Below the pieces are notes generated by a model. It was not told the origin of the DNA and did no database searches. It was given only the letters and a program-made list of their open reading frames with translations. Below, piece after piece: positions 7,571 through 25,421 of a stretch of 26,789 nucleotides of DNA. Made by a program: the position numbers and the translations under genes. Source of the stretch: a virus (taxonomy: Duplodnaviria > Heunggongvirae > Uroviricota > Caudoviricetes); IMG/VR virus record IMGVR_UViG_2568526722_000004, positions 1 through 26,789 of that record; one strand, written 5' to 3'. Position 1 is the stretch's first letter. Each line of letters opens with the position of its first letter.

Positions 7571-7920
7571 TGGAGCCATACAGCCTCACACTCGATGAGG
7601 CCTGTCATTTTCTCAAGATATCCAGACCGACTGCCATTAACTGGATACGCACAGGGCGTCTTCAGGCAACACGCAAAGATCCCACTAAGAATAAATCTCC
7701 TTACCTCACAACACGACAAGCCTGCATTGCGGCTCTTCAGTCTCCGCTGCATACTGTCCAGGTGAGCGCGGGTGATGGCATAACAGAGGAAAGAAAATGT
7801 CACTCTTCCGCAGAGGTGAAATATGGTACGCCAGTTTCACATTGCCGAACGGTAAAAGATTTAAACAGTCTCTTGGAACAAAGGACAAAAGGCAGGCGAC
7901 AGAACTCCATGACAAGCTAA
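7570..7920 (+). CDS. Excisionase-like HTH protein (Xis/AlpA-type)
   Basis: ATG at 7570 with AGGTGA RBS; N-terminal [31 protein letters not shown] is an excisionase-type HTH; sits directly upstream of the integrase; the frame stays open to 7920, overlapping int by 124 nt, so the 3' end is uncertain. Confidence 0.5.
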
Positions 7921-8960
7921 AGGCTGAAGCATGGCGGGTCAGCAAACTTGGTGAAATACCTGATATAACGTTCGAGGAAGCGTGTGTCAGGTGGCTTGAA
8001 GAGAAAGCACATAAAAAATCACTGGACGATGACAAAAGCCGGATCGGATTCTGGCTTCAACATTTCGCAGGAATGCAACTAAGAGACATTACTGAATCAA
8101 AAATTTATTCAGCAATGCAGAAAATGACGAACCGGCGTCATGAGGAAAACTGGAAACTCAGGGCAGAAGCATGCAGAAAAAAAGGGAAACCTGTTCCAGA
8201 ATACACGCCAAAACCAGCGTCCGTTGCAACGAAGGCTACGCATCTTTCATTTATAAAGGCCCTACTAAGAGCCGCAGAGCGTGAATGGAAAATGCTGGAT
8301 AAGGCACCAATTATTAAAGTGCCCCAACCAAAGAATAAACGGATCCGCTGGCTGGAGCCCCATGAAGCACAAAGGCTGATTGATGAATGTCCGGAGCCAT
8401 TAAAGTCTGTTGTTGAATTTGCACTGGCAACAGGCCTAAGACGCTCGAACATCATCAACCTTGAATGGCAACAAATAGATATGCAGCGCCGGGTGGCATG
8501 GATAAACCCGGAAGAGAGTAAATCAAACCGCGCAATTGGCGTTGCGCTGAATGATACTGCATGTCGCGTATTGAAAAAACAAATCGGGAATCATCACCGT
8601 TGGGTATTTGTGTACAAGGAAAGCTGTACCAAACCAGACGGAACGAAAGCGCCAACAGTCAGGAAGATGCGGTATGACGCAAACACAGCCTGGAAAGCGG
8701 CGCTGAGACGGACTGGTATTGATGATTTCAGATTTCACGACTTGAGACACACCTGGGCAAGTTGGCTGGTTCAAGCCGGAGTCCCGTTGTCAGTGTTACA
8801 GGAAATGGGAGGCTGGGAGTCTATCGAAATGGTTCGTCGATATGCTCACCTTGCACCTAATCACCTTACCGAACACGCACGGCAAATAGACTCGATCCTA
8901 AACCCATCGGTCCCAAATTTGTCCCAGTCAAAAAATAAGGAAGGTACTAATGATGTGTAA
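7797..8960 (+). CDS. Tyrosine recombinase, lambdoid phage integrase
   Basis: 387-aa ORF; N-terminus [14 protein letters not shown]... (arm-binding type); C-terminal catalytic region ...[40 protein letters not shown] with the conserved HxxR and Tyr motif; ends 13 nt before a copy of the thrW 3' end. Confidence 0.85.
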
Positions 8961-8972
8961 CTTATTGATTTA

Positions 8973-8990
8973 AATGGTGCGATAATAGGA
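8973..8990. repeat. att core repeat (copy of the thrW 3' end): attR of element A and attL of element B
   Basis: AATGGTGCGATAATAGGA matches 25344-25362 AATGGTGCCGATAATAGGA (18/19, one C missing), same orientation. Confidence 0.7.
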
Positions 8991-9307: not shown

Positions 9308-10288
9308 TCATGCTAAAGCTCGAGCTACATTTTCTTTGATCGCAATAGCACAAGGAGTTTTGAACTTTTCTTTGCAACAGTGTAATAGCGTATTAATATT
9401 CAAATCAGTTTCAAGAATATTTTTTAGCTCACTCTTTCTTTCCGAGATTAAGGTTGGTTTATCTTTGCATTGTTTGACTATTAAGGCAGTTTCATTAATA
9501 TTCAATTGCTCTATCAATGATTTTATGACAGGCATGACAACTCTATCAGCTAAAAAATGACCATTGATATATTGATAGGCGTTATCTTCTCTCAATCCTT
9601 TATCATATAACTGCTCATAGAATTTATCAGCATCGTATTCATCTTGAATAAGGTTATCAAGTTTTTCTTCAATAACCGCTTTAGATTGCTGCATACTTTC
9701 AAATACAGCATTTTTGATAACAAATTGGTTCGTTAATCGTGGCACAGAAGGAGCAATCGCTTCATGGAAAACTGAGTCATCAAGTCTAACTTGATGCTGT
9801 TTAAGCAATAAAAATTTCTTCAGCACGGGGTAGATCAACCGTGAATACTCTGTAATGTATGCTGTAAAATCGAATTTAATTTCAGTAGCGATCTTTATTT
9901 GAGAAAGACAATACTCAAGGACTTCATGGTGTAACTCGATGCTCTCTTTTGAATATACAAATGTTTGAAAAATAAACTTGTTACTGCAAATTATCTCTGA
10001 GTCTGTACTGTTTTTAGGGCATAAATAATCAAAATCACTATCCATTGCAAATATGGCATATCGATTTGCTCGGCTCATGAATTTTTTTAATACTGGTTTC
10101 CCTTTTGTTCCTTTATTGGTAGGGTTACAAATATCAAAACGTATATCATTATCTTTATCGTTTAATAAGCCTTCCCAGAAAGAAATGTCTTTTAGACCTT
10201 CAACAAAGACAAAGCCATTGTGTCCAGCCATAATACAATATACCTGAAGATATTCTTCGCTAAAATTAATATCCTCAAACTCAGTCAT
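9308..10288 (-). CDS. ariB: AriB-like DUF4435/Toprim protein (PARIS defense system effector)
   Basis: 326-aa ORF overlapping the upstream ATPase gene by 8 nt; N-terminal Toprim-like features (MAGHNGFVFVEGLKD..., acidic AIFAMDSDFDY); low GC; the pairing with an ABC-type ATPase is the PARIS (AriA/AriB) architecture. Confidence 0.6.
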   Translation of the reverse strand: MTEFEDINFSEEYLQVYCIMAGHNGFVFVEGLKDISFWEGLLNDKDNDIRFDICNPTNKGTKGKPVLKKFMSRANRYAIFAMDSDFDYLCPKNSTDSEIICSNKFIFQTFVYSKESIELHHEVLEYCLSQIKIATEIKFDFTAYITEYSRLIYPVLKKFLLLKQHQVRLDDSVFHEAIAPSVPRLTNQFVIKNAVFESMQQSKAVIEEKLDNLIQDEYDADKFYEQLYDKGLREDNAYQYINGHFLADRVVMPVIKSLIEQLNINETALIVKQCKDKPTLISERKSELKNILETDLNINTLLHCCKEKFKTPCAIAIKENVARALA

Positions 10289-11276
10289 GAGAAGATTCCT
10301 TTGAAATATTTTTTATATCTACGAAAGAATCCATCCAGCCTTTCATTAATATTGCAGGACTATGAGTAACAATAATTAACTGACAATTATCGTTAATTGA
10401 TTTGATGGTGCTTATTAATCTTTCTTGCCACGTAAGGTGCAAGGATATTTCTGGCTCATCCATCAACAAGACAGATTCATCCAATGAAGTATTAGCTGTT
10501 TTAATCAGAATATATAACAACTGACGTTCACCTGATGAAAGAAGATTATACCTAATATCTTCACCAGAATCACTCATCTTAATAGAAATGTTACCATTAC
10601 TAAAAGAAACAACTTTGTTACATTCAGCAAATAAATTATTTATAGCTGATTCCAACTTATCCTTTATGAGAATACCTTTAGACTCACTTACTTTGAAAGT
10701 ATTCTTTAACCTTTCTAATTCACCAGCAATTTCCATATCAAGAATTGTGGTGCGCTCACCATCACTTTTTTTGAATTCATAGATGGAATTGGCACTCATA
10801 TTGATAGTTGATATTAACTCAACATTTATTCGCTTAGTGTTTTTAATATTATCACTTACGCTAACAGTTCCCATCCCGAACTCTTTAATTTCAGTGTCTT
10901 CTTTTTTCGATTCAAGCAACTCAATAAGTTCATTTAACTCCTTTATTTCCTTACCCTTTGATTTACCTTTAATACTGTTTTTCTTAAGGTTATTAAGTAG
11001 GTTTAGAAGCTGGACAGAGTCAATTTCGCGAAAATTAACTTTGTGAGTAATTGTGCCTCCATTGGCCAATGTTATTTGAGCCAACGCAGCATTACTTAAA
11101 CTTTCATTTAATTCTTGTTTTAAGAGGGCAAAAACACTTTGAATTATCGTGCTCTTACCTGAGCCATTTTTACCCACTAAAACATTCACATCTTTTAAAC
11201 TCCAATCAATGTCCTTCCGTTTAAAAAGACCTTTGATTGCTATATTTTTGATTATCGTCGCCACTCTCGTATCCAT
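10281..11276 (-). CDS. ariA: AriA-like ABC/AAA_15-21 ATPase (PARIS defense system sensor)
   Basis: 331-aa ORF; Walker A GKNGSGKST, signature-like LSSGERQLL, Walker B LLMDEPE, H-loop IIVTHS; low GC. Confidence 0.65.
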   Translation of the reverse strand: MDTRVATIIKNIAIKGLFKRKDIDWSLKDVNVLVGKNGSGKSTIIQSVFALLKQELNESLSNAALAQITLANGGTITHKVNFREIDSVQLLNLLNNLKKNSIKGKSKGKEIKELNELIELLESKKEDTEIKEFGMGTVSVSDNIKNTKRINVELISTINMSANSIYEFKKSDGERTTILDMEIAGELERLKNTFKVSESKGILIKDKLESAINNLFAECNKVVSFSNGNISIKMSDSGEDIRYNLLSSGERQLLYILIKTANTSLDESVLLMDEPEISLHLTWQERLISTIKSINDNCQLIIVTHSPAILMKGWMDSFVDIKNISKESSHD

Positions 11277-11653
11277 TATTATGAAAGTTGAAATGATTAT
11301 AACATGCTTAGCGTGCGCTTGGCATCTACCCTACAGTTGTTAGCAATAAACTTTATAACACAATGTAACACATTGAATTTAAACACTTAATATCAAATCC
11401 AACGCTAAACATCACGGAACCTGAAAGACTCTTGGCATTCTAGTTAGTACCTACTACGAAACGTTTTGAAAGGTTAAAGTGGACAGTCCGCATCAACTGT
11501 AACTTAAAATGCTCAGTAACGATGCATCTGCATGATTTGCAAAGTATGACAGAACTTCATTTGATGCTTTCACAAATGCGTGCCTGAAGTTTTCTAAAGC
11601 GGCGCGGTTAACTCTTTCTGGCTCAAAACCTTAATAAATCTGTATATCGCGGG

Positions 11654-11880
11654 TTGACACACTTGACACTTTTTCGGGAAAAACCTTAACAAAACTTAAC
11701 CTCCCCTGGCATTTCTAAGCATGGCAACTTGACACTTTTCGCGATTTTTTCGGCTTTTTGACGTGGTAAATCTGGCGAAAGGCCAGTAATGGCGCGGCTT
11801 ACAGCGAGGTTGACACTTTTTCGCGTTCAGAGTGTAAAGTGTCAACCTGGCAAGCTGCTCAACTTGACACTTTTTGATGT
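11654..11880. repeat. Array of TTGACAC(T)TTTT direct repeats plus one inverted copy
   Basis: GTTGACACACTTGACACTTTTTCGGG (~11654-11680), AACTTGACACTTTTCGCG (~11727), GGTTGACACTTTTTCGCG (~11808), inverted AGTGTAAAGTGTCAACC (~11831), AACTTGACACTTTTTGATG (~11862); immediately 3' of the 175-aa HTH gene. Confidence 0.55.
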
Positions 11881-12407
11881 CATTGATGGTCTGATTTTTC
11901 CCATTCAGCTAGGGCGTTTAGCCCGGCTTCACTCCATGATTCCAGTTCATCGGCATAATCACCTGCAACATAGCAGAGTTCGCAACGCAGCATACGAATT
12001 GCCAGCCTGGCATTACCTCGCAAATTGTATTTTTCAAAGTAATGCTGCCCTTCATCATCCTCAAGGCAGATAGCACCATCATCAAGAAAGTGCACTTCCC
12101 AGCCTAATTCCCCGGCTGCATCCAGCACACGCTGCTGTATGCCCTCGTCCGTTGCTGGCGCAGGAATTTTACCGCCTCTGGCCTTAACTGCTTTCCAGAA
12201 CTCGCCCCACGTCATTTCCAGCGTTCTTTCTGGCCACATTTCAGAAATGGTGTCTTTCCCCTGTGCTGGTGGGCTGTTCCGCTGCTCTGTCGCTTCCACA
12301 TCAATTTTTTTGCCAGACATGATCACTTCGCCTTTCTCGATCCAGTCGTAAACTGTCTGGCGGCTTACGCCTTTGTATTTGGCGTATTCGGCTTTACTCA
12401 TCAACAT
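11880..12407 (-). CDS. HTH-domain protein with terminase-small-subunit (Nu1)-like N-terminus; possible packaging or regulatory role
   Basis: 175-aa protein from the ATG at 12407 (GAGGTGA RBS 5 nt upstream); N-terminal MLMSKAEYAKYKGVSRQTVYDWIEKGEV resembles the winged-HTH of small terminase/Nu1-type proteins; the track's longer 202-aa form is an unlikely N-terminal extension. Confidence 0.5.
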   Translation of the reverse strand: MLMSKAEYAKYKGVSRQTVYDWIEKGEVIMSGKKIDVEATEQRNSPPAQGKDTISEMWPERTLEMTWGEFWKAVKARGGKIPAPATDEGIQQRVLDAAGELGWEVHFLDDGAICLEDDEGQHYFEKYNLRGNARLAIRMLRCELCYVAGDYADELESWSEAGLNALAEWEKSDHQ

Positions 12408-13609: not shown

Positions 13610-14752
13610 TTAAAGGGAACTTTTTTTCGCCCCTTCAATTTCTTCCTGACAAATTTCGTCATTTGTAAATGAGTACTGCAGATAGACATATCCCTGAGTG
13701 GAATTGTTCGCTCTGGCCTCAATAGAGATAGTATCGATATTGTTTTTTAATGGTATTTCTTTTGTTCCCTTCCATGTGGCAGATAAGAAGCGTTCTTTTT
13801 TGTTTAGCCCCCTCATCCAGTCCTGAGGATCTTTCCAAATTGAACCAGCCAGCAAAAAGTCTGTAGTATCAGCCTTTCCATACAGAGAACTTAAAGAATT
13901 ACTCAATTCTTCAAACTTGGATTTAAGAGCCAATCCATAGCTATCAGTATCAATATTTTTTCCTAAAGCCCGTATTTGACATAAACCAGCTTTCGGGGAG
14001 ATCAACAAACCATACATTTCAAAATCTGCGTTTTGCTTCGGTAATTTATCAGAAGTATACAGATTCACACTGTCTGGTAGTGGCTTGAGCTTAGCACCGA
14101 TCATATCTTCGATGTTTTTCTGTGTAAGACCGGCTTCTAAGCCAAACGGACCATCCGCTGGCGGGAGTAAAGGAAGTTGCCCTTGGGAATTTTTGGCTGT
14201 TACTTCCGTTTCAGTACTGTTTTTTGCGTCATTATCTTGTACTGATGCCAGCTTAACTTCAGCGAGGCCATACTTGGCTGTGAGGTACTTTTGCTGCAAC
14301 ATTGCCATGGTCTGCTCTTCAGTGGCAACAGTAGATAATTTTAGTACCTTTATCAGACCACCACTATACTGACGAGCATCAGCTTTGGCTTCGTTGATTT
14401 TTGCATCTAAGCTGTCAATTTCAGTTTTAATTGAAGCCGCAAGCTCAGGATCAGGTTTTACTCCAGATACAACAACATCAATTTTGGCACCTGATTCAAT
14501 AGCATTAATACGCTGTTCCAAAAGCGCTTTATTAGTTCCTAATATTTCCAGTCTTGCTGTTGTCAGATTTTTTATCAACCCACCAGAAAACTGCTGGTCA
14601 ACTTCCTTAGCTGCTGATATTTCACCTTCCGTTTGCGACAGTTCAGCTTTAAGAGCCGCTACTTCCTGTTTCTGTTCTGGAGTTAACTCTTCTGGCCCAC
14701 ATCCGGTTAACATTACTATACCGACTAATGTTGCAATTAAAGTTTTATTCAT
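13610..14752 (-). CDS. Lipoprotein with internal tandem repeat, unknown function
   Basis: 380-aa ORF; signal peptide with lipobox (MNKTLIATLVGIVMLTGCG); two related ~55-aa repeats (…QQFSGGLIKNLTTARLEILGT… and …RQYSGGLIKVLKLSTVATEEQ…); AT-rich. Confidence 0.6.
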   Translation of the reverse strand: MNKTLIATLVGIVMLTGCGPEELTPEQKQEVAALKAELSQTEGEISAAKEVDQQFSGGLIKNLTTARLEILGTNKALLEQRINAIESGAKIDVVVSGVKPDPELAASIKTEIDSLDAKINEAKADARQYSGGLIKVLKLSTVATEEQTMAMLQQKYLTAKYGLAEVKLASVQDNDAKNSTETEVTAKNSQGQLPLLPPADGPFGLEAGLTQKNIEDMIGAKLKPLPDSVNLYTSDKLPKQNADFEMYGLLISPKAGLCQIRALGKNIDTDSYGLALKSKFEELSNSLSSLYGKADTTDFLLAGSIWKDPQDWMRGLNKKERFLSATWKGTKEIPLKNNIDTISIEARANNSTQGYVYLQYSFTNDEICQEEIEGAKKSSL

Positions 14753-15175: not shown

Positions 15176-15684
15176 GCGCCTATTGTCTCCTTTGCTGCCC
15201 GGCGCTGGCGTTTGCGCTTCTCATTCAGCGCCACCAGCCGCGTTTCTGCGTCCTGTTGTTCCTGTGGTGTCACCTCGCCGCACGGCTGGCCTTTCAGGTC
15301 GTAGCGTACCCCACCAGCCATTAAGGCGCGGTAATAGTGCGGACACTGCGCATAAGATGCCAGCGTCGCACGCAATGCCCCTGGCCCGAATGCCAGCCCC
15401 CTGACGGCGAGATCCTGCATCAGGTCGTCGAATATCCCCACCTTAAGCGGCTTCGGTGCTTCCCGGCTGAATAAGTCAGGCCACAACTCAGTGAGGCGGT
15501 TAACGCGCCTGCGGTTTTTGCGCTGGCGTTTGGTCATATGCCGCCACGGTGTCGCCCCTGTGGGCTTTTGCTGCGCTTTCTGGTTACCGGGCATCACTTT
15601 ATGCGCCGATGTGGTTTTATGATCTTACCCAGCAATAGTGGACACGCGGCTAAGTGAGTAAACTCTCAGTCAGAGGTGACTCAC

Positions 15685-15984
15685 ATGACAAAAACAGTAT
15701 CAACCAGTAAAAAACCCCGTAAACAGCATTCGCCTGAATTTCGCAGTGAAGCCCTGAAGCTTGCTGAACGCATCGGTGTTACTGCCGCAGCCCGTGAACT
15801 CAGCCTGTATGAATCACAACTCTACAACTGGCGCAGTAAACAGCAAAATCAGCAGACGTCTTCTGAACGTGAACTGGAGATGTCTACCGAGATTGCACGT
15901 CTCAAACGCCAGCTGGCAGAACGGGATGAAGAGCTGGCTATCCTCCAAAAGGCCGCGACATACTTCGCGAAGCGCCTGAAATGA
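15685..15984 (+). CDS. insE: IS3 transposase OrfA (InsE)
   Basis: 99-aa product [32 protein letters not shown]... with AGGTGA RBS; matches IS3 InsE from memory. Confidence 0.9.
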
Positions 15985-16847
15985 AGTATGTCTTTATTGA
16001 AAAACATCAGGCTGAGTTCAGCATCAAAGCAATGTGCCGCGTGCTCCGGGTGGCCCGCAGCGGCTGGTATACGTGGTGTCAGCGGCGGACAAGGATAAGC
16101 ACGCGTCAGCAGTTCCGCCAACACTGCGACAGCGTTGTCCTCGCGGCTTTTACCCGGTCAAAACAGCGTTACGGTGCCCCACGCCTGACGGATGAACTGC
16201 GTGCTCAGGGTTACCCCTTTAACGTAAAAACCGTGGCGGCAAGCCTGCGCCGTCAGGGACTGAGGGCAAAGGCCTCCCGGAAGTTCAGCCCGGTCAGCTA
16301 CCGCGCACACGGCCTGCCTGTGTCAGAAAATCTGTTGGAGCAGGATTTTTACGCCAGTGGCCCGAACCAGAAGTGGGCAGGAGACATCACGTACTTACGT
16401 ACAGATGAAGGCTGGCTGTATCTGGCAGTGGTCATTGACCTGTGGTCACGTGCCGTTATTGGCTGGTCAATGTCGCCACGCATGACGGCGCAACTGGCCT
16501 GCGATGCCCTGCAGATGGCGCTGTGGCGGCGTAAGAGGCCCCGGAACGTTATCGTTCACACGGACCGTGGAGGCCAGTACTGTTCAGCAGATTATCAGGC
16601 GCAACTGAAGCGGCATAATCTGCGTGGAAGTATGAGCGCAAAAGGTTGCTGCTACGATAATGCCTGCGTGGAAAGCTTCTTTCATTCGCTGAAAGTGGAA
16701 TGTATCCATGGAGAACACTTTATCAGCCGGGAAATAATGCGGGCAACGGTGTTTAATTATATCGAATGTGATTACAATCGGTGGCGGCGGCACAGTTGGT
16801 GTGGCGGCCTCAGTCCGGAACAATTTGAAAACAAGAACCTCGCTTAG
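15981..16847 (+). CDS. insF: IS3 transposase OrfB (InsF), DDE catalytic domain; expressed as OrfAB by -1 frameshift
   Basis: 288-aa ORF overlapping the orfA stop (ATGA); DDE-type integrase core (…HTDRGGQY…, …[11 protein letters not shown]…). Confidence 0.9.
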
Positions 16848-16982
16848 GCCTGTGTCCATATTACGTGGGTAGGATCATTATCCTGCTCCTGCGCCGCCTG
16901 CGTCGTTTTCTGCGGCGTGCCGTAAATGCCTTTCGGTTTTCTGTTAATGGTCAGCTTAGTCATGCTTTGCCCCATCGTTACA

Positions 16983-17316
16983 ACTGTCTACCAACTGTCT
17001 ACCGATATAATTGTTTGATTTATTTAATGTTATTAATACATAACAAAAAAACAATCTGCAAACTGTCTACCAACTCTCTACAGTATTAATACATTGATAA
17101 TTAATGACTTTTACTAAATGGTAGACAGTGTAGATAGTTAAAAGAAAAATTTTAAAAATGAACCCATAACTATCTATTTTTAGATACCCCCGTGGTTTAG
17201 AAATATAAAATAAACTGTCCACCTCTCTACCACATTAAAAATACCTATATAATTCAAAACATTAATTAGTAGATGGTTGGTAGAGGGTTAAGTGTATCTG
17301 TCTACCAACCGTCTAC
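16983..17316. repeat. Iteron-like repeat array in AT-rich DNA downstream of the primase gene (candidate replication origin)
   Basis: CTGTCTACCAACTGTCTACC (16983-17002), CTGTCTACCAACTCTCTAC (17063-17081), inverted GGTAGACAGTGTAGATAG (~17120), CTGTCCACCTCTCTACCAC (~17215), inverted GGTTGGTAGAGGG (~17276), CTGTCTACCAACCGTCTAC (17298-17316). Confidence 0.6.
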
Positions 17317-17344
17317 TTTTAAGTTTCAACTTATAAATTTCGTA

Positions 17345-19150
17345 TCATGTTCTGTCGTTAATGCCTGCCGTTGCTGGTAACCATCCATCAGCATCTTTAT
17401 CTAACAGAACATTTGTGATCGTTCGCCCTTTATCTGGACCTTTAGTGCATTTAGCCCGCTTGTACTCCTTTCCGTACTCAGCCATTGCCCCTGGCATATC
17501 TGTACCAAAGCGTGTCAGTGATACCGGTTTTCCCAGACCATGCGCAGACATATAAGCCAAATAAGCATGATACAGATATCGCCTCGGACTAAATGGCACT
17601 ATTTCTGCATTACCTACTATCATTCCCTCACATTTAACCAACGACATCAGATAACCGCAGAAGTCCACCAGCGAATCACCTTCACGCTTTATCAACAGTG
17701 CTTCTTCTGATTTTTGCTGCTCATAAAGTAGTCTTTTCGCTTCGTCCTGGTCGGCAAATCGTGTAAGCAAATGGCGAATCACTACTGCCAGTTCCCCTTC
17801 TATCTTTTTCGCCAGCATCGGATCGCGTTCGTTCTCTGGTACAACCTCAGAGAAATTAAATATTACTCGTCGACGCGAGATCCCCCCACTACGGTCGCTG
17901 AATGACATGGCATAATTGTTTACTGCCAGCACTACCGCAGGAACGCGCGTGGAATAGGGCGCTTTGTGTTTCGGATCGATAGCCACCTTGTCACCGCCTG
18001 TAATGGCCTTAATCCCAGCACCATCACCTGCGTAGCGGGTCATGTCAGGCATGATAATCAGAGAATATCCCACCACTAACGCTCGTTCCCTCGCGTCTTC
18101 CAGCGCCTTCATGCTCGCCGATACTGTATTGGCCTTACCCGCCAGCATGGTACAAATCTCCGCCATCACACTTTTACCGCTTCCGCCCGGCCCCGTTACC
18201 TCAAGGAATAACTGCCAGTCGTACCGGTTCGCCAGTACCATGAATAATGCCGCCAGTACGCGATCCGCTTTACGAGCATTATCCGCCACCGAACGACGCA
18301 ACCACTTCCAGAAATTCGGCGCATGTGTTGCCAGCGTTTCCCCCTCTTCTGGCGGGCTGAACGGTAATTCACTGGCATTTAACAACCAGTCATTTTTGTT
18401 GTGTTCCCGAAAATTTCCTGTCCTGATATCAAAAACACCGTTACTGAACCCAATAAGATTTCTGTCCGCTCCCCCCATAACAGGTAGACTCAATTTCATT
18501 GTCTCTACGGCAAATTTAATGGCGTTTTGCGAATAACTAATTTCGGCATCAATAAAAATCTTCGCCATAGACCGCTGGAGTTCCTTATCAGATACAGGCT
18601 CCCAAACAATTCCGTTGTAATGGTGAACTACATCAGAATCATCATTTATCGCCAGTGCTCCTCCATAATGTTCAAGTAACACTTCCCCTCTCTGGCTGGC
18701 TCCCATCTGATTTAATGCAGGCTTGGGTAGACCACTATTTTTTGTAGCTAATTTCATCACTGAAACTTCCCCGTGCTCAGCCTGTTCGCGGATCCGTTGC
18801 AGGTAGTCGCGCCAGTTCTCCGGTTCCTGGTCGGTGATACCTTTGTATAATTTCGCCTCCTGTACGCCAGCCAGCGCCAGCTTTTCAGCGATAGTATTGA
18901 TCTGGATTGGCTCTATCTCCCCCGCGATATAGACACGCGCAAAACGGCGTTTCTCGTCAATAATGCGGATATTCGCCAGGTCTGCCAGTTGCTTTGGCCC
19001 CAGGTAAACAGGAGGCACGTTATCGCCGTGTTTTCGTCCTTCACTTTCAATCCAGTGTTGAGCATGGGCGTAAGCATCCATCCCGGCAAAAATGATTACC
19101 TCAGTGAATTTATCCTTCGGCTGATATTTTAGACTCGGTGCGTTTTTCAC
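17345..19150 (-). CDS. Replication primase/helicase-like protein (P4 alpha / D5-type SF3 NTPase family)
   Basis: 601-aa ORF; Walker A in ...LEVTGPGGSGKSVMAE...; last gene of a tightly coupled operon; followed by the iteron array. Confidence 0.7.
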   Translation of the reverse strand: MKNAPSLKYQPKDKFTEVIIFAGMDAYAHAQHWIESEGRKHGDNVPPVYLGPKQLADLANIRIIDEKRRFARVYIAGEIEPIQINTIAEKLALAGVQEAKLYKGITDQEPENWRDYLQRIREQAEHGEVSVMKLATKNSGLPKPALNQMGASQRGEVLLEHYGGALAINDDSDVVHHYNGIVWEPVSDKELQRSMAKIFIDAEISYSQNAIKFAVETMKLSLPVMGGADRNLIGFSNGVFDIRTGNFREHNKNDWLLNASELPFSPPEEGETLATHAPNFWKWLRRSVADNARKADRVLAALFMVLANRYDWQLFLEVTGPGGSGKSVMAEICTMLAGKANTVSASMKALEDARERALVVGYSLIIMPDMTRYAGDGAGIKAITGGDKVAIDPKHKAPYSTRVPAVVLAVNNYAMSFSDRSGGISRRRVIFNFSEVVPENERDPMLAKKIEGELAVVIRHLLTRFADQDEAKRLLYEQQKSEEALLIKREGDSLVDFCGYLMSLVKCEGMIVGNAEIVPFSPRRYLYHAYLAYMSAHGLGKPVSLTRFGTDMPGAMAEYGKEYKRAKCTKGPDKGRTITNVLLDKDADGWLPATAGINDRT

Positions 19151-22613: not shown

Positions 22614-22811
22614 TCAGGTAGCTGTTCCGCGTGATTCCGCAATACGCTGATTAATCCACTCGTCAATTTCACTCTCAACGAAAGCAATAGCTCGCGAGCC
22701 AATTTTAACTGATGCAGGAAATTTACCTTGCCCCATAAGGCGATAAATCCATGCCTTGCTATATCCAGTTCTACGCTGAACTTCTGTTAAACGAATAAGC
22801 GTATTTGACAT
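22614..22811 (-). CDS. alpA: AlpA-family phage transcriptional regulator
   Basis: 65-aa ORF: MSNTLIRLTEVQRRTGYSKAWIYRLMGQGKFPASVKIGSRAIAFVESEIDEWINQR, a typical AlpA HTH; sits downstream of a P4-type integrase. Confidence 0.8.
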   Translation of the reverse strand: MSNTLIRLTEVQRRTGYSKAWIYRLMGQGKFPASVKIGSRAIAFVESEIDEWINQRIAESRGTAT

Positions 22812-23964: not shown

Positions 23965-25179
23965 TCACCCGCATTTTCCGAACTCACCATGCACCACATT
24001 TCCGCCATGCTCGAGCGAATCCATATAATCAGCGTACCACTGAAGCATTTCCCGCCGCCCATCCAGATATTGCGCATGGTTGTATGTGCCACGAATTGAG
24101 TTTTTATCGACGTGCGCAAGCTGTGTCTCTATCCACGCGGTGTTATAGCCCTGCTCATGCAAAATGGTGCTCATAGTGTGCCGGAAGCCATGACCAGTAA
24201 CCTTTCCGTTATAGCCGATGCGTTTAAATACTTGGTTTATGCTAGCCTCGCTCATTGTTTTCCTTGGATCATTACGGCCGGGAAACATAAGCGGATAATT
24301 GCCAGTTAGTTCTTTAATCTGCCCAATAAGCGAAAGAGCCTGCTCAGACAAAGGCACTACATGAGGGCGACGCATTTTCATCCGTGAAGCAGGTATCTCC
24401 CAGATAGCCTTGTTGAGATCGATTTCATCCCATAATGCACCGCGCAGTTCGCCAGTCCGCAAACCGGTGATAATCAGTAAACGAGCCGCCATAACAACCA
24501 ATGCACTTCCTGAGTAACTGGACAATGCCTTGAAAAAATCAGGTAATTCTTTGGCTGTGAGGAAAGGATAATGATTAGATTCATGACCTTGCATCGCGCT
24601 GGTGAGATCCGGTGCAGGGTTATACTCAGCACGTCCAGTGACAATTGCATAGCGGAAAACTTCCCCACATCGCTGCCTCACTTTTTTGGCTTTTTCGGTA
24701 GCACCGCGCCCCTCGATGCGCCGCAGCACATTCAGCAGTTCAAGTGGTTTGATTTCGGCGATTGGTTTTTTGCCAATGTAAGGGAACACATCTTTGTTGA
24801 AGGCTTCGAGGATGTCTGAAGCATAACCAGCAGACCATTTTTTTAATTTGCTGCTGTGCCACTCAAGGGCAATATCTTTGAAGGTGTTGTTTAACTGCGT
24901 TTCCCGGGCAATCTTTTCCTCTCGTTTCGCTTCCATCGGATCGATACCCCCAGCGATACCCCTTTTAGCTTCTTCACGTTTTGCACGAGCATCAGCCAAG
25001 GTAACTTCAGGATACACACCTAGTGCTAACAGCTTCTCTTTACCAGCTACACGATACTTGAAGCGCCAATATTTTCCTCCACTAGGTTTTACCAAGAGAT
25101 ACAGACCACCACCATCAGCCAGCTTGTAAGCCTTCTCTTTTGGCTTGGCAGTGTCTATTTGACGGGCATTGAGTTTCAC
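23965..25179 (-). CDS. Tyrosine recombinase, P4-type integrase
   Basis: 404-aa ORF next to and co-oriented with thrW; N-terminal MKLNARQIDTAKPKEKAYKLADGGGLYLLVKPSGGKYWRFKYR... (P4-integrase N-terminal domain type) and C-terminal ...GHGFRHTMSTILHEQGYNTAWIETQLAH...Y catalytic region. Confidence 0.9.
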   Translation of the reverse strand: MKLNARQIDTAKPKEKAYKLADGGGLYLLVKPSGGKYWRFKYRVAGKEKLLALGVYPEVTLADARAKREEAKRGIAGGIDPMEAKREEKIARETQLNNTFKDIALEWHSSKLKKWSAGYASDILEAFNKDVFPYIGKKPIAEIKPLELLNVLRRIEGRGATEKAKKVRQRCGEVFRYAIVTGRAEYNPAPDLTSAMQGHESNHYPFLTAKELPDFFKALSSYSGSALVVMAARLLIITGLRTGELRGALWDEIDLNKAIWEIPASRMKMRRPHVVPLSEQALSLIGQIKELTGNYPLMFPGRNDPRKTMSEASINQVFKRIGYNGKVTGHGFRHTMSTILHEQGYNTAWIETQLAHVDKNSIRGTYNHAQYLDGRREMLQWYADYMDSLEHGGNVVHGEFGKCG

Positions 25180-25343: not shown

Positions 25344-25362
25344 AATGGTGCCGATAATAGGA
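25344..25362. repeat. att core at the thrW 3' end (attL of element A)
   Basis: AATGGTGCCGATAATAGGA overlaps the last 17 nt of the tRNA gene; imperfect direct repeat at 8973-8990. Confidence 0.7.
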
Positions 25363-25421
25363 GTCGAACCTACGACCTTCGCATTACGAATGCGCTGCTC
25401 TACCAACTGAGCTATATCGGC
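25346..25421 (-). tRNA. thrW: tRNA-Thr (anticodon CGU)
   Basis: Reverse complement is GCCGATATAGCTCAGTTGGTAGAGCAGCGCATTCGTAATGCGAAGGTCGTAGGTTCGACTCCTATTATCGGCACCA: 76 nt, cloverleaf-compatible, anticodon loop TTCGTAA, encoded CCA; sits immediately downstream of proA as thrW does in E. coli. Confidence 0.95.

Follow-up and report, generated by a model that had tools for sequence, protein, structure and literature searches.

The window analysed here, i.e., the whole 26,789-nucleotide stretch of the virus record IMGVR_UViG_2568526722_000004, carries an array of TTGACAC repeats directly behind the gene of a 175-amino-acid (175-aa) protein. We read this array as a set of R-element binding sites for the winged helix-turn-helix (wHTH) domain of the adjacent protein, the two together being the packaging-specificity module of a satellite that resembles a phage-inducible chromosomal island (PICI). 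As a whole, this reading has in our judgement about an even chance of being correct. On the sequence evidence, the protein probably binds the repeats, and packaging as the purpose of the array could be true or false with nearly equal weight. The repeats and the gene are as follows.

11608-11614, + strand: degenerate copy TTAACTC; relatives have an intact GTGTCAA/TTGACAC here, abutting the next conserved block
11654-11660, + strand: truncated TTGACAC repeat of the array
11654-11673, + strand: doublet TTGACACAC-TTGACACTTTT, i.e., the truncated and then a full copy; the arrays of a sister family also open with a doublet
11663-11673, + strand: full copy of the repeat TTGACACTTTT, exact match
11729-11739, + strand: TTGACACTTTT, exact match
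11810-11820, + strand: TTGACACTTTT, partner of the inverted copy
11835-11845, - strand: inverted copy TTGACACTTTA, half of the conserved inverted pair
11864-11874, + strand: TTGACACTTTT, 5 nt from the stop codon of the 175-aa gene
11880-12407, - strand: gene of the 175-aa protein (ATG at 12407, stop codon 11880-11882)

The array lies 3' of the 175-aa gene and is convergent with it, and the 227 bp past the stop codon hold four exact copies of TTGACACTTTT, one truncated copy and one inverted copy. An earlier note, made from the letters of this DNA alone, had claimed such an array, and the exact copies, their clustering and a shuffle test bear it out. When one mismatch at most was allowed, the 11-mer TTGACACTTTT was matched five times in the 26.8-kb window, every time inside the array, against 1.03 matches expected, and none of 100 shuffles reached five. 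The heptamer TTGACAC occurs seven times in the window, six times in the array and once elsewhere. A chance cluster was considered and ruled out by the shuffles and by the conservation across loci described below. Five direct copies and an inverted one had been counted in the note; the inverted copy stands, but the direct ones are four full copies and a truncated one rather than five full copies. Similarly, two of its approximate spacings (12, 63, 81 and 54 bp) were reproduced and two were not, the measured start-to-start distances being 9, 66, 81 and 54 nt. Its placing of the array directly after the gene agrees with a last copy that ends 5 nt from the stop codon, and its gap of about 600 bp before the PARIS genes was measured at 603 bp.

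Gene and array occur together well beyond the window. Among the genome contigs, a protein-first search gave 18 homologue loci in single-species genomes, and in 16 of these the motif was found within 400 nt after the gene. The 16 loci span Escherichia, Pantoea, Rouxiella, Raoultella, Buttiauxella, Lelliottia, Pseudocitrobacter, Enterobacter and Mangrovibacter; in the other two, either the gene is truncated or its downstream region has been replaced. Motif density after the gene was 83 times that in the rest of the same loci, and the repeat consensus in the direction of the gene is (g/a)AAAAGTGTCAA(c/g)(c/t). A DNA-first scan, in which TTGACACTTT-N10-24-AAAGTGTCAA was run against 2.9 million IMG/VR viral contigs, retrieved 109 stretches, 102 of them with a homologue (33-96% identity) that ends mostly 37-57 nt from the pair; the remaining seven, L105 among them, are without the 175-aa gene. 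Pooling gave 100 distinct loci. At least three repeat copies are present in 96 of them, and a primase homologue lies nearby in 84. By these comparisons, gene and array are linked across about 100 loci of many enterobacterial genera.

The inverted pair (11810-11820 with 11835-11845) is the most conserved element of the array. In 93 of the 100 loci its two copies, inverted and forward, are spaced by 27 or 28 nt, in a search whose pattern permitted 20-34 nt. The copy at 11864-11874 is kept in closer relatives and is missing from the distant group of loci. From the first copy to the second, an 8-bp unit, CAGCTTGC, is repeated one to seven times in tandem in E. coli islands that are otherwise 96% identical (L061, L079, L088, L117 and L137, first 100 nt past the gene), which indicates that the spacing of these two copies is not constrained. 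The inverted pair is accordingly the core of the array, with the remaining copies as accessories.

The array is independent of the AlpA regulator, of the iterons of the replication origin and of the cargo genes, as far as such comparisons reach. The island EcCIMP1 has an AlpA that is 81% identical to that of the window, with the same recognition helix, but it has no 175-aa gene and no TTGACAC in 30 kb; it had been considered as a member of the gene-array family and was set aside, its backbone being related but gene and array missing. The island of strain ABU 83972, on the other hand, has an unrelated AlpA-like regulator and other origin iterons, yet gene and array are kept. From these two contrasts, the array follows the gene and not the island backbone. 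The cargo past the array varies by island (SEFIR/TIR, Abi_2, DUF2971, reverse transcriptase, GmrSD-like or PARIS, as read 0.3-4.5 kb after the gene in L002, L007, L014, L016 and L019 and at 9308-11276 in the window), and PARIS follows the array in one of the 100 loci, the window itself. The gene-array module is the last conserved unit before this variable defence hotspot, a position that favours the packaging reading. In phage P4, cos adjoins such a defence hotspot.

Further evidence comes from the sister family, which consists of L105 and of six contigs (L151-L156) found with the L105 protein; the six are 61-69% identical to one another.

L105 7200-8141 and L151-L156 3650-4585: sister-family element with cosQ/cosN, repeats and a wHTH gene

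The element has a cosQ-like box, AAAAATGGGTCCTTCCT, then CACGGGCATTGCGCGCCGCG, and these two stretches align base for base with Citrobacter phage phiNP and Serratia phage BZS1. In L105 the cosN GGGCATTGCGCGCCGCG and the box are identical to those of the phages, and most of L151-L155 have them exactly or as near variants; the BZS1 record starts at GCATTGCGCGCC, where bases 1-12 carry the annotation of a left cohesive end. About 45 bp past cosN, the two phages have three copies of GGTAACA, directly ahead of the ATG of a Nu1-type gene of the small terminase subunit (TerS). At this very position the sister family has 6-11 copies of TTGACA(C/G) in both orientations. The gene after the repeats encodes 186-194 aa, begins MSLMSVSQYAKHAGMSRQALYTW and matches PHROG 57 at 1.5e-8; its wHTH is 41% identical to that of the window protein over 41 residues, with no similarity beyond the wHTH. 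No TerS C-terminus was found in the sister-family protein, nor any sequence match to Rpp. By positional homology the TTGACAC repeats of the sister family would be R elements of the cosB type, and it is from their cosB position that the window array is read as the recognition site of the adjacent protein.

In L156 a different cosN is combined with the same TTGACA(C/G) array, which fits a cut site matched to the large terminase subunit (TerL) of the helper and an array matched to the element's own wHTH. The recognition helices are SRQTVYDW in the window family, SRQALYTW in the sister family and SRKTVTQW in the phages; from these few lineages, Gln and Tyr may go with TTGACAC, and Lys and Thr with GGTAACA. 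The sister-family contigs seem to be a further group of terminase-dependent elements and not phages, and they are possibly satellites of phiNP/BZS1-type phages. Some of the elements have myovirus tail genes or a truncated capsid gene around them. In the phages themselves, GGTAACA, the presumed cosB word, occurs 4-5 more times at about 12-nt spacing in the 5' part of terS (L147 3175-3232; L148 246-303), where it encodes a Gly-Asn-rich linker.

The 175-aa protein begins MLMSKAEYAKYKGVSRQTVYDWIEKGEVIMSGKKIDVEATE, and its start codon is preceded by GAGGTG six bases upstream. Residues 1 to about 45 are a wHTH of the excisionase/MerR/TerS type. A confident AlphaFold model built on 46 homologues (mean predicted local distance difference test score, pLDDT, 89) has the wHTH at 1-45 and an alpha/beta domain at 60-172, joined by a disordered linker (46-55). 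The resemblance of the N-terminus to the wHTH of TerS, which had been pointed out before, was found again by Pfam HTH_17 and PHROG 57 'terminase small subunit', both weak and over residues 1-42 only; NCBIfam 'excise' likewise matches the N-terminus, and all three matches are below or near threshold. For residues 1-45 the best phage matches are the Nu1-type TerS of BZS1 (E 6e-5) and phiNP (E 1e-4), with N-terminal identities of about 42-45%. Among homologues the first 41 residues are nearly invariant and the remainder falls to about 35% identity; an invariant reading head facing an invariant DNA word looks like a cognate pair of protein and site. In databases the protein is named 'MerR family transcriptional regulator' (PGAP), and two homologues are named 'Repressor' (UniRef).

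All TerS matches ended at about residue 45, and a TerS-like C-terminal region for oligomerisation and TerL binding was sought and is absent. TerS chains in the PDB were detected neither by sequence nor by family profile, and RppC chains in the PDB gave no match at E <= 1 with the single sequence or the 46-sequence profile; the build of Rpp, i.e., a wHTH followed by three helices and a C-terminal coiled-coil dimer, was not seen. Structure prediction and comparison with TerS/Nu1 and Rpp therefore upheld the N-terminal wHTH but not membership in either group: the 175-aa protein is not a TerS, and it does not belong to the Rpp family. Its C-terminal domain had no match in PDB, BFVD, Pfam, PHROG, NCBIfam or PADLOC. 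No full-length homologue was found by tblastn in 50,697 phage records, and none among 72,556 plasmids; a literature search found no paper on the protein family, its accessions or the TTGACAC motif.

Most likely, to judge from these similarities, the module works like cosB with the DNA-binding domain of a TerS or Rpp, while standing outside both protein families. In the mechanism proposed, expression of the island operon, and with it of the 175-aa protein, would be triggered by a helper phage. The protein would coat the repeats, with the inverted pair at 27/28 nt as the core and the direct copies as loosely spaced accessories. Its C-terminal domain would then recruit or re-target the helper terminase to island concatemers, as gpNu1 does on lambda cosB and Rpp-TerS on PICI cosB (PMC6739421), and a cut or headful start would follow in the conserved sequence beyond the array, at about 11494-11600. 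If the orientation of the sister-family arrays is carried over, a cut site is expected left of the array (+ strand). The protein-DNA binding, the contact with the terminase, the packaging role in the window island and the cut position are what we infer. The earlier note had suggested a packaging-recognition site; the gene-repeat linkage and the cosB position in the sister family speak for it; against it, the protein is not a TerS, and no cosN of the lambda, P2 or BZS1 type is in the window. No terL is present in the window, and the usual TerS neighbourhood, with terL adjacent and cosN-cosB upstream, was not found there.

The array resembles lambda cosB (R3-I1-R2-R1) and gpNu1 in having a short motif in direct and inverted copies, irregularly spaced, beside a gene that starts with a wHTH. 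Compared with a lambda-type cosB, however, the window has no cosQ/cosN, IHF site or adjacent terL and has the array 3' of an inverted gene; it has more copies, 6-7 against three, and the C-terminal two-thirds of the 175-aa protein is unrelated to TerS. From the Rpp of EcCICFT073 and relatives (PMC6739421, PMC9026076) the protein differs by having no sequence similarity to the solved RppC chain and by an alpha/beta C-terminus instead of three helices with a coiled coil. The window also has many repeats, downstream of the gene and without a known cosN, and no helper-like cosQ/cosN upstream (PMC9026076). The TerS and pac of Staphylococcus aureus pathogenicity islands (SaPIs) offer a likeness in principle, as a satellite-encoded specificity factor that directs the helper large terminase, which is what is proposed for the window; the SaPI TerS, however, is a true TerS homologue with pac in or near terS, whereas the 175-aa protein is TerS-like only in the wHTH. 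The centromere of pSK1 Par and the sites of BldC are similar in combining a MerR-like wHTH with several direct repeats and an inverted one next to the protein's own gene, but their sites are upstream and serve partition or transcription, whereas those of the window follow the gene, and the window family is missing from plasmids.

Several observations weigh against a role in packaging. The C-terminal two-thirds of the protein resembles neither TerS nor Rpp, and a search of residues 56-175 against 5.8 billion proteins recovered only the protein's own family, always behind the same N-terminus. Excisionases and regulators, too, use domains of the same wHTH class. No characterised cos-terS or cos-rpp layout (PMC9026076) has its array 3' of a gene in inverted orientation, as the window does. 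The array contains no IHF consensus, IHF-like sites being present in the origin and near the att site. No credible cosN of lambda, P2/186 or BZS1 and no BZS1 cosQ box was found in the window and the 100 related downstream regions, and the conserved blocks that flank the array had no significant match in the 50,697 phage records, the boundary block none at all. The sister-family contigs, on which the positional homology depends, are uncharacterised and have no terL within 4 kb.

The following features of the cargo side bear on the alternatives.

9308-10288, - strand: ariB of PARIS, cargo
10281-11276, - strand: ariA of PARIS, cargo
11325-11296, - strand: promoter-like site directly upstream of ariA, PARIS's own

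The main rival explanation, unlikely but still in play and mentioned in the earlier note as regulator binding sites, is that the 175-aa protein is a transcription factor of the MerR/excisionase type and that the repeats are its operators, or a roadblock or insulator at the border of operon and cargo, so that they would control read-through or cargo expression and not packaging. The database names quoted above agree with this, as do a fold class common with regulators such as BldC and Cox, the place of the array between the operon and co-directional cargo genes, and, in the distant group, an intrinsic-terminator-like hairpin after the array; in the window, a terminator scan found none in the gap between array and PARIS. 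However, the sole promoter-like site is that of PARIS, and none overlaps any copy. The array is kept while the cargo changes completely, the protein lacks the coiled coil and effector domain of MerR, and the repeats of the sister family are at a cos site rather than at a recognisable promoter. Stacked -35 elements of sigma-70 promoters, the other possibility raised in the earlier note, fared worse, as in a promoter scan no copy among the six had a -10 hexamer at 16-18 nt. From the array it is 2.6 kb to the nearer att core (8981-8990) and 13.5 kb to the integrase end, and the protein, with its extra domain, is 2-3 times the size of an excisionase (Xis; about 55-80 aa) and so does not fit that class. 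Stacked -35 elements, Xis sites or a chance cluster can hardly account for the array.

A replication or maintenance site, i.e., iterons, a region like P4 crr or a centromere bound by a Par-like wHTH protein, is improbable. The island already has an iteron origin at 16982-17333, 3' of the primase gene, and on finding it the hypothesis of the array as origin was dropped. In the island of ABU 83972 the iterons change to AACTGTTCACC and the TTGACAC array is unchanged, i.e., the two do not co-vary. There is no TTGACAC near the primase, the array is not AT-rich, and plasmids lack a homologue, as stated above. Less probable still is an element acting at the RNA level, such as a stabilising hairpin in the 3' untranslated region or a target of the ProQ/FinO-domain protein encoded by the island. 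The inverted pair can form a hairpin of 13-16 bp, and shuffled versions of the region fold less well than the region itself (z = -3.1). However, in the distant group complementarity stops at the motif edge, and each copy has its own-strand flank (c/g)(c/t), which suits a binding site for a protein better than a stem. Moreover, a hairpin leaves the direct copies unexplained, Rfam gave no match, and the sister-family repeats are upstream of their gene, at a cos site.

Three further blocks, one within the array and two beyond it, are conserved among 112 loci.

11494-11506, + strand: conserved boundary CAACTGTAACTTA, in 67/112 loci; left of it, cargo diverges between islands
11583-11600, + strand: conserved block CCTGAAGTTTTCTAAAGC, in 70/112 loci, with two CTGAAG-like half-sites 10 bp apart
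11783-11793, + strand: conserved block CCAGTAATGGC, between two repeat copies, in 41/112 loci and common to the Raoultella and Pantoea relatives

The block CCTGAAGTTTTCTAAAGC is on that side of the array where cosN stands in the sister family, and it may be a candidate site for the helper terminase. Many E. coli islands with a near-identical array have CCTAAGATTTCCTAAGG in its place. The form found in the distant group, CTGAAGTTTTCTGAAGC, has an exact 17-nt match inside terS of four Klebsiella prophages, with E = 7, so it may be due to chance. The terS in question is a Pfam Terminase_2, next to a TerL of the T4-like headful type, and the match falls in a hypervariable patch of the otherwise conserved gene, in which each of three variants has a 10-bp-phased direct repeat. 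The pac site of P22 (annotated GAAGATTTATCTGAAGTCGTTA; GAAGATTTATCTGAAG) is similar in build to the two-half-site block. The stretches compared for the block are window 11494-11600, L166 2501-2517 and L170 4-25. The other variants of the Klebsiella patch were sought in the islands and none was found, so the idea of a pac mimic rests on a single 17-nt match.

A packaging signal in two parts, the satellite's own array and an exchangeable, helper-specific element, serving satellites of headful (pac) phages, is a doubtful extension of the packaging reading. In such a signal the array may be bound by a new class of terminase-redirecting protein, with a TerS-like wHTH and a novel alpha/beta domain, and the helper element may exist as CTGAAG-TTTT-CT(A/G)AAG in the window and many relatives and as CTAAG-ATTTC-CTAAG in other E. 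coli islands. If this were true, a swap of the element would let a satellite change helpers while keeping its own recognition protein. The intergenic regions of the window and of the distant group gave only two kinds of match in phages, both dismissed: a 40-nt match (E 4e-3) to the early region of Shiga toxin (Stx) phages near antB, which is not a packaging region, and chance matches to a terminator hairpin.

Two observations on the repeats were made outside the complete gene-array module. In five loci (L157, L158, L159, L161 and L163) the array is joined to an intact 3' end of tRNA-Thr, 7 nt away from its first TTGACAC (e.g., L158 11530-11930); array, terminator and boundary block are retained in these remnants and the island core including the 175-aa gene is gone. 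As the five are near-identical in sequence, they probably represent one event. In L055 (3940-4110), an AT-rich and apparently non-enterobacterial viral contig, about nine TTGACAC/GTGTCAA copies and, in addition, CTTTACA variants are densely clustered in 170 bp, and a homologue of the 175-aa protein is absent.

The window matches E. coli chromosomes, and the stretch is carried by 166 of 5,426 complete genomes (about 3%). It holds an island of 16.4 kb, IS3 element included, integrated at tRNA-Thr, with these features besides the ones already given.

8981-8990: second att core TCCTATTATC, distal island end
16982-17333: replication origin, immediately 3' of the primase gene
17345-19150, - strand: primase
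22614-22811, - strand: AlpA
23965-25179, - strand: integrase (int)
25346-25421: tRNA-Thr, integration site of the island

On the minus strand the order is int, AlpA, an AntA-like protein, small open reading frames (ORFs), a DUF4222 protein, primase and IS3, followed by ProQ/FinO, a PerC-like remnant, a 380-aa protein, three small ORFs, the 175-aa gene, the array and PARIS. There are no virion or lysis genes in the island. With int, AlpA, a primase with an adjacent iteron origin, a specific att site and a size of about 15 kb, its layout is that of a Gram-negative phage-inducible chromosomal island (PMC6092414), and the window island is a PICI-like satellite with PARIS as cargo. The att core TCCTATTATC is the sequence reported for EcCIMP1 (PMC11773190). 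The origin has at least eight AACTGTCTACC iterons in both orientations around a stretch of 25% GC with two IHF consensus sites; the AACTGTTCACC iterons of the ABU 83972 island contain TGTTCACC, which we take to be the type I iteron of phage P4.

EcCIMP1, which shares the related backbone without gene and array, is mobilised by phage Kapi1, and in the study of that island its packaging module was called unrecognisable (PMC11773190). Many enterobacterial PICI-like islands have been scored as incomplete 'type C' islands, having no recognisable packaging module (PMC11773190). If the packaging reading is right, the missing packaging determinant would be supplied for a widespread lineage, present in about 3% of complete E. 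coli genomes and in many other genera, together with a defined 11-bp recognition element, which is still wanting for the Rpp system (PMC9026076). The module would also be the fixed border of a defence hotspot (PARIS, TIR/SEFIR, Abi, reverse transcriptase and GmrSD) and could explain how these systems travel, and the packaging of a satellite with neither terminase genes nor a helper-like cos site would become directly testable.

Some minor observations on the island remain. The 380-aa ORF (13610-14752) has no match in Pfam, PHROG or PADLOC, and in NCBIfam only a weak lipoprotein-signal-like N-terminus; it was found in 12 of the 100 related loci and is thus an accessory gene within the island core. 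Between the ProQ/FinO gene and the origin stands an inserted IS3-family element (15676-16847), its orfA and orfB with rve domains. Strain GPEC617 has an otherwise identical island that is without an IS3 there but carries one near an Icd-like gene. Two elements stand in tandem at tRNA-Thr: right after the distal att core (8981-8990) comes a second element's integrase gene (7797-8960, + strand), and the same tandem arrangement has been reported beside EcCIMP1.

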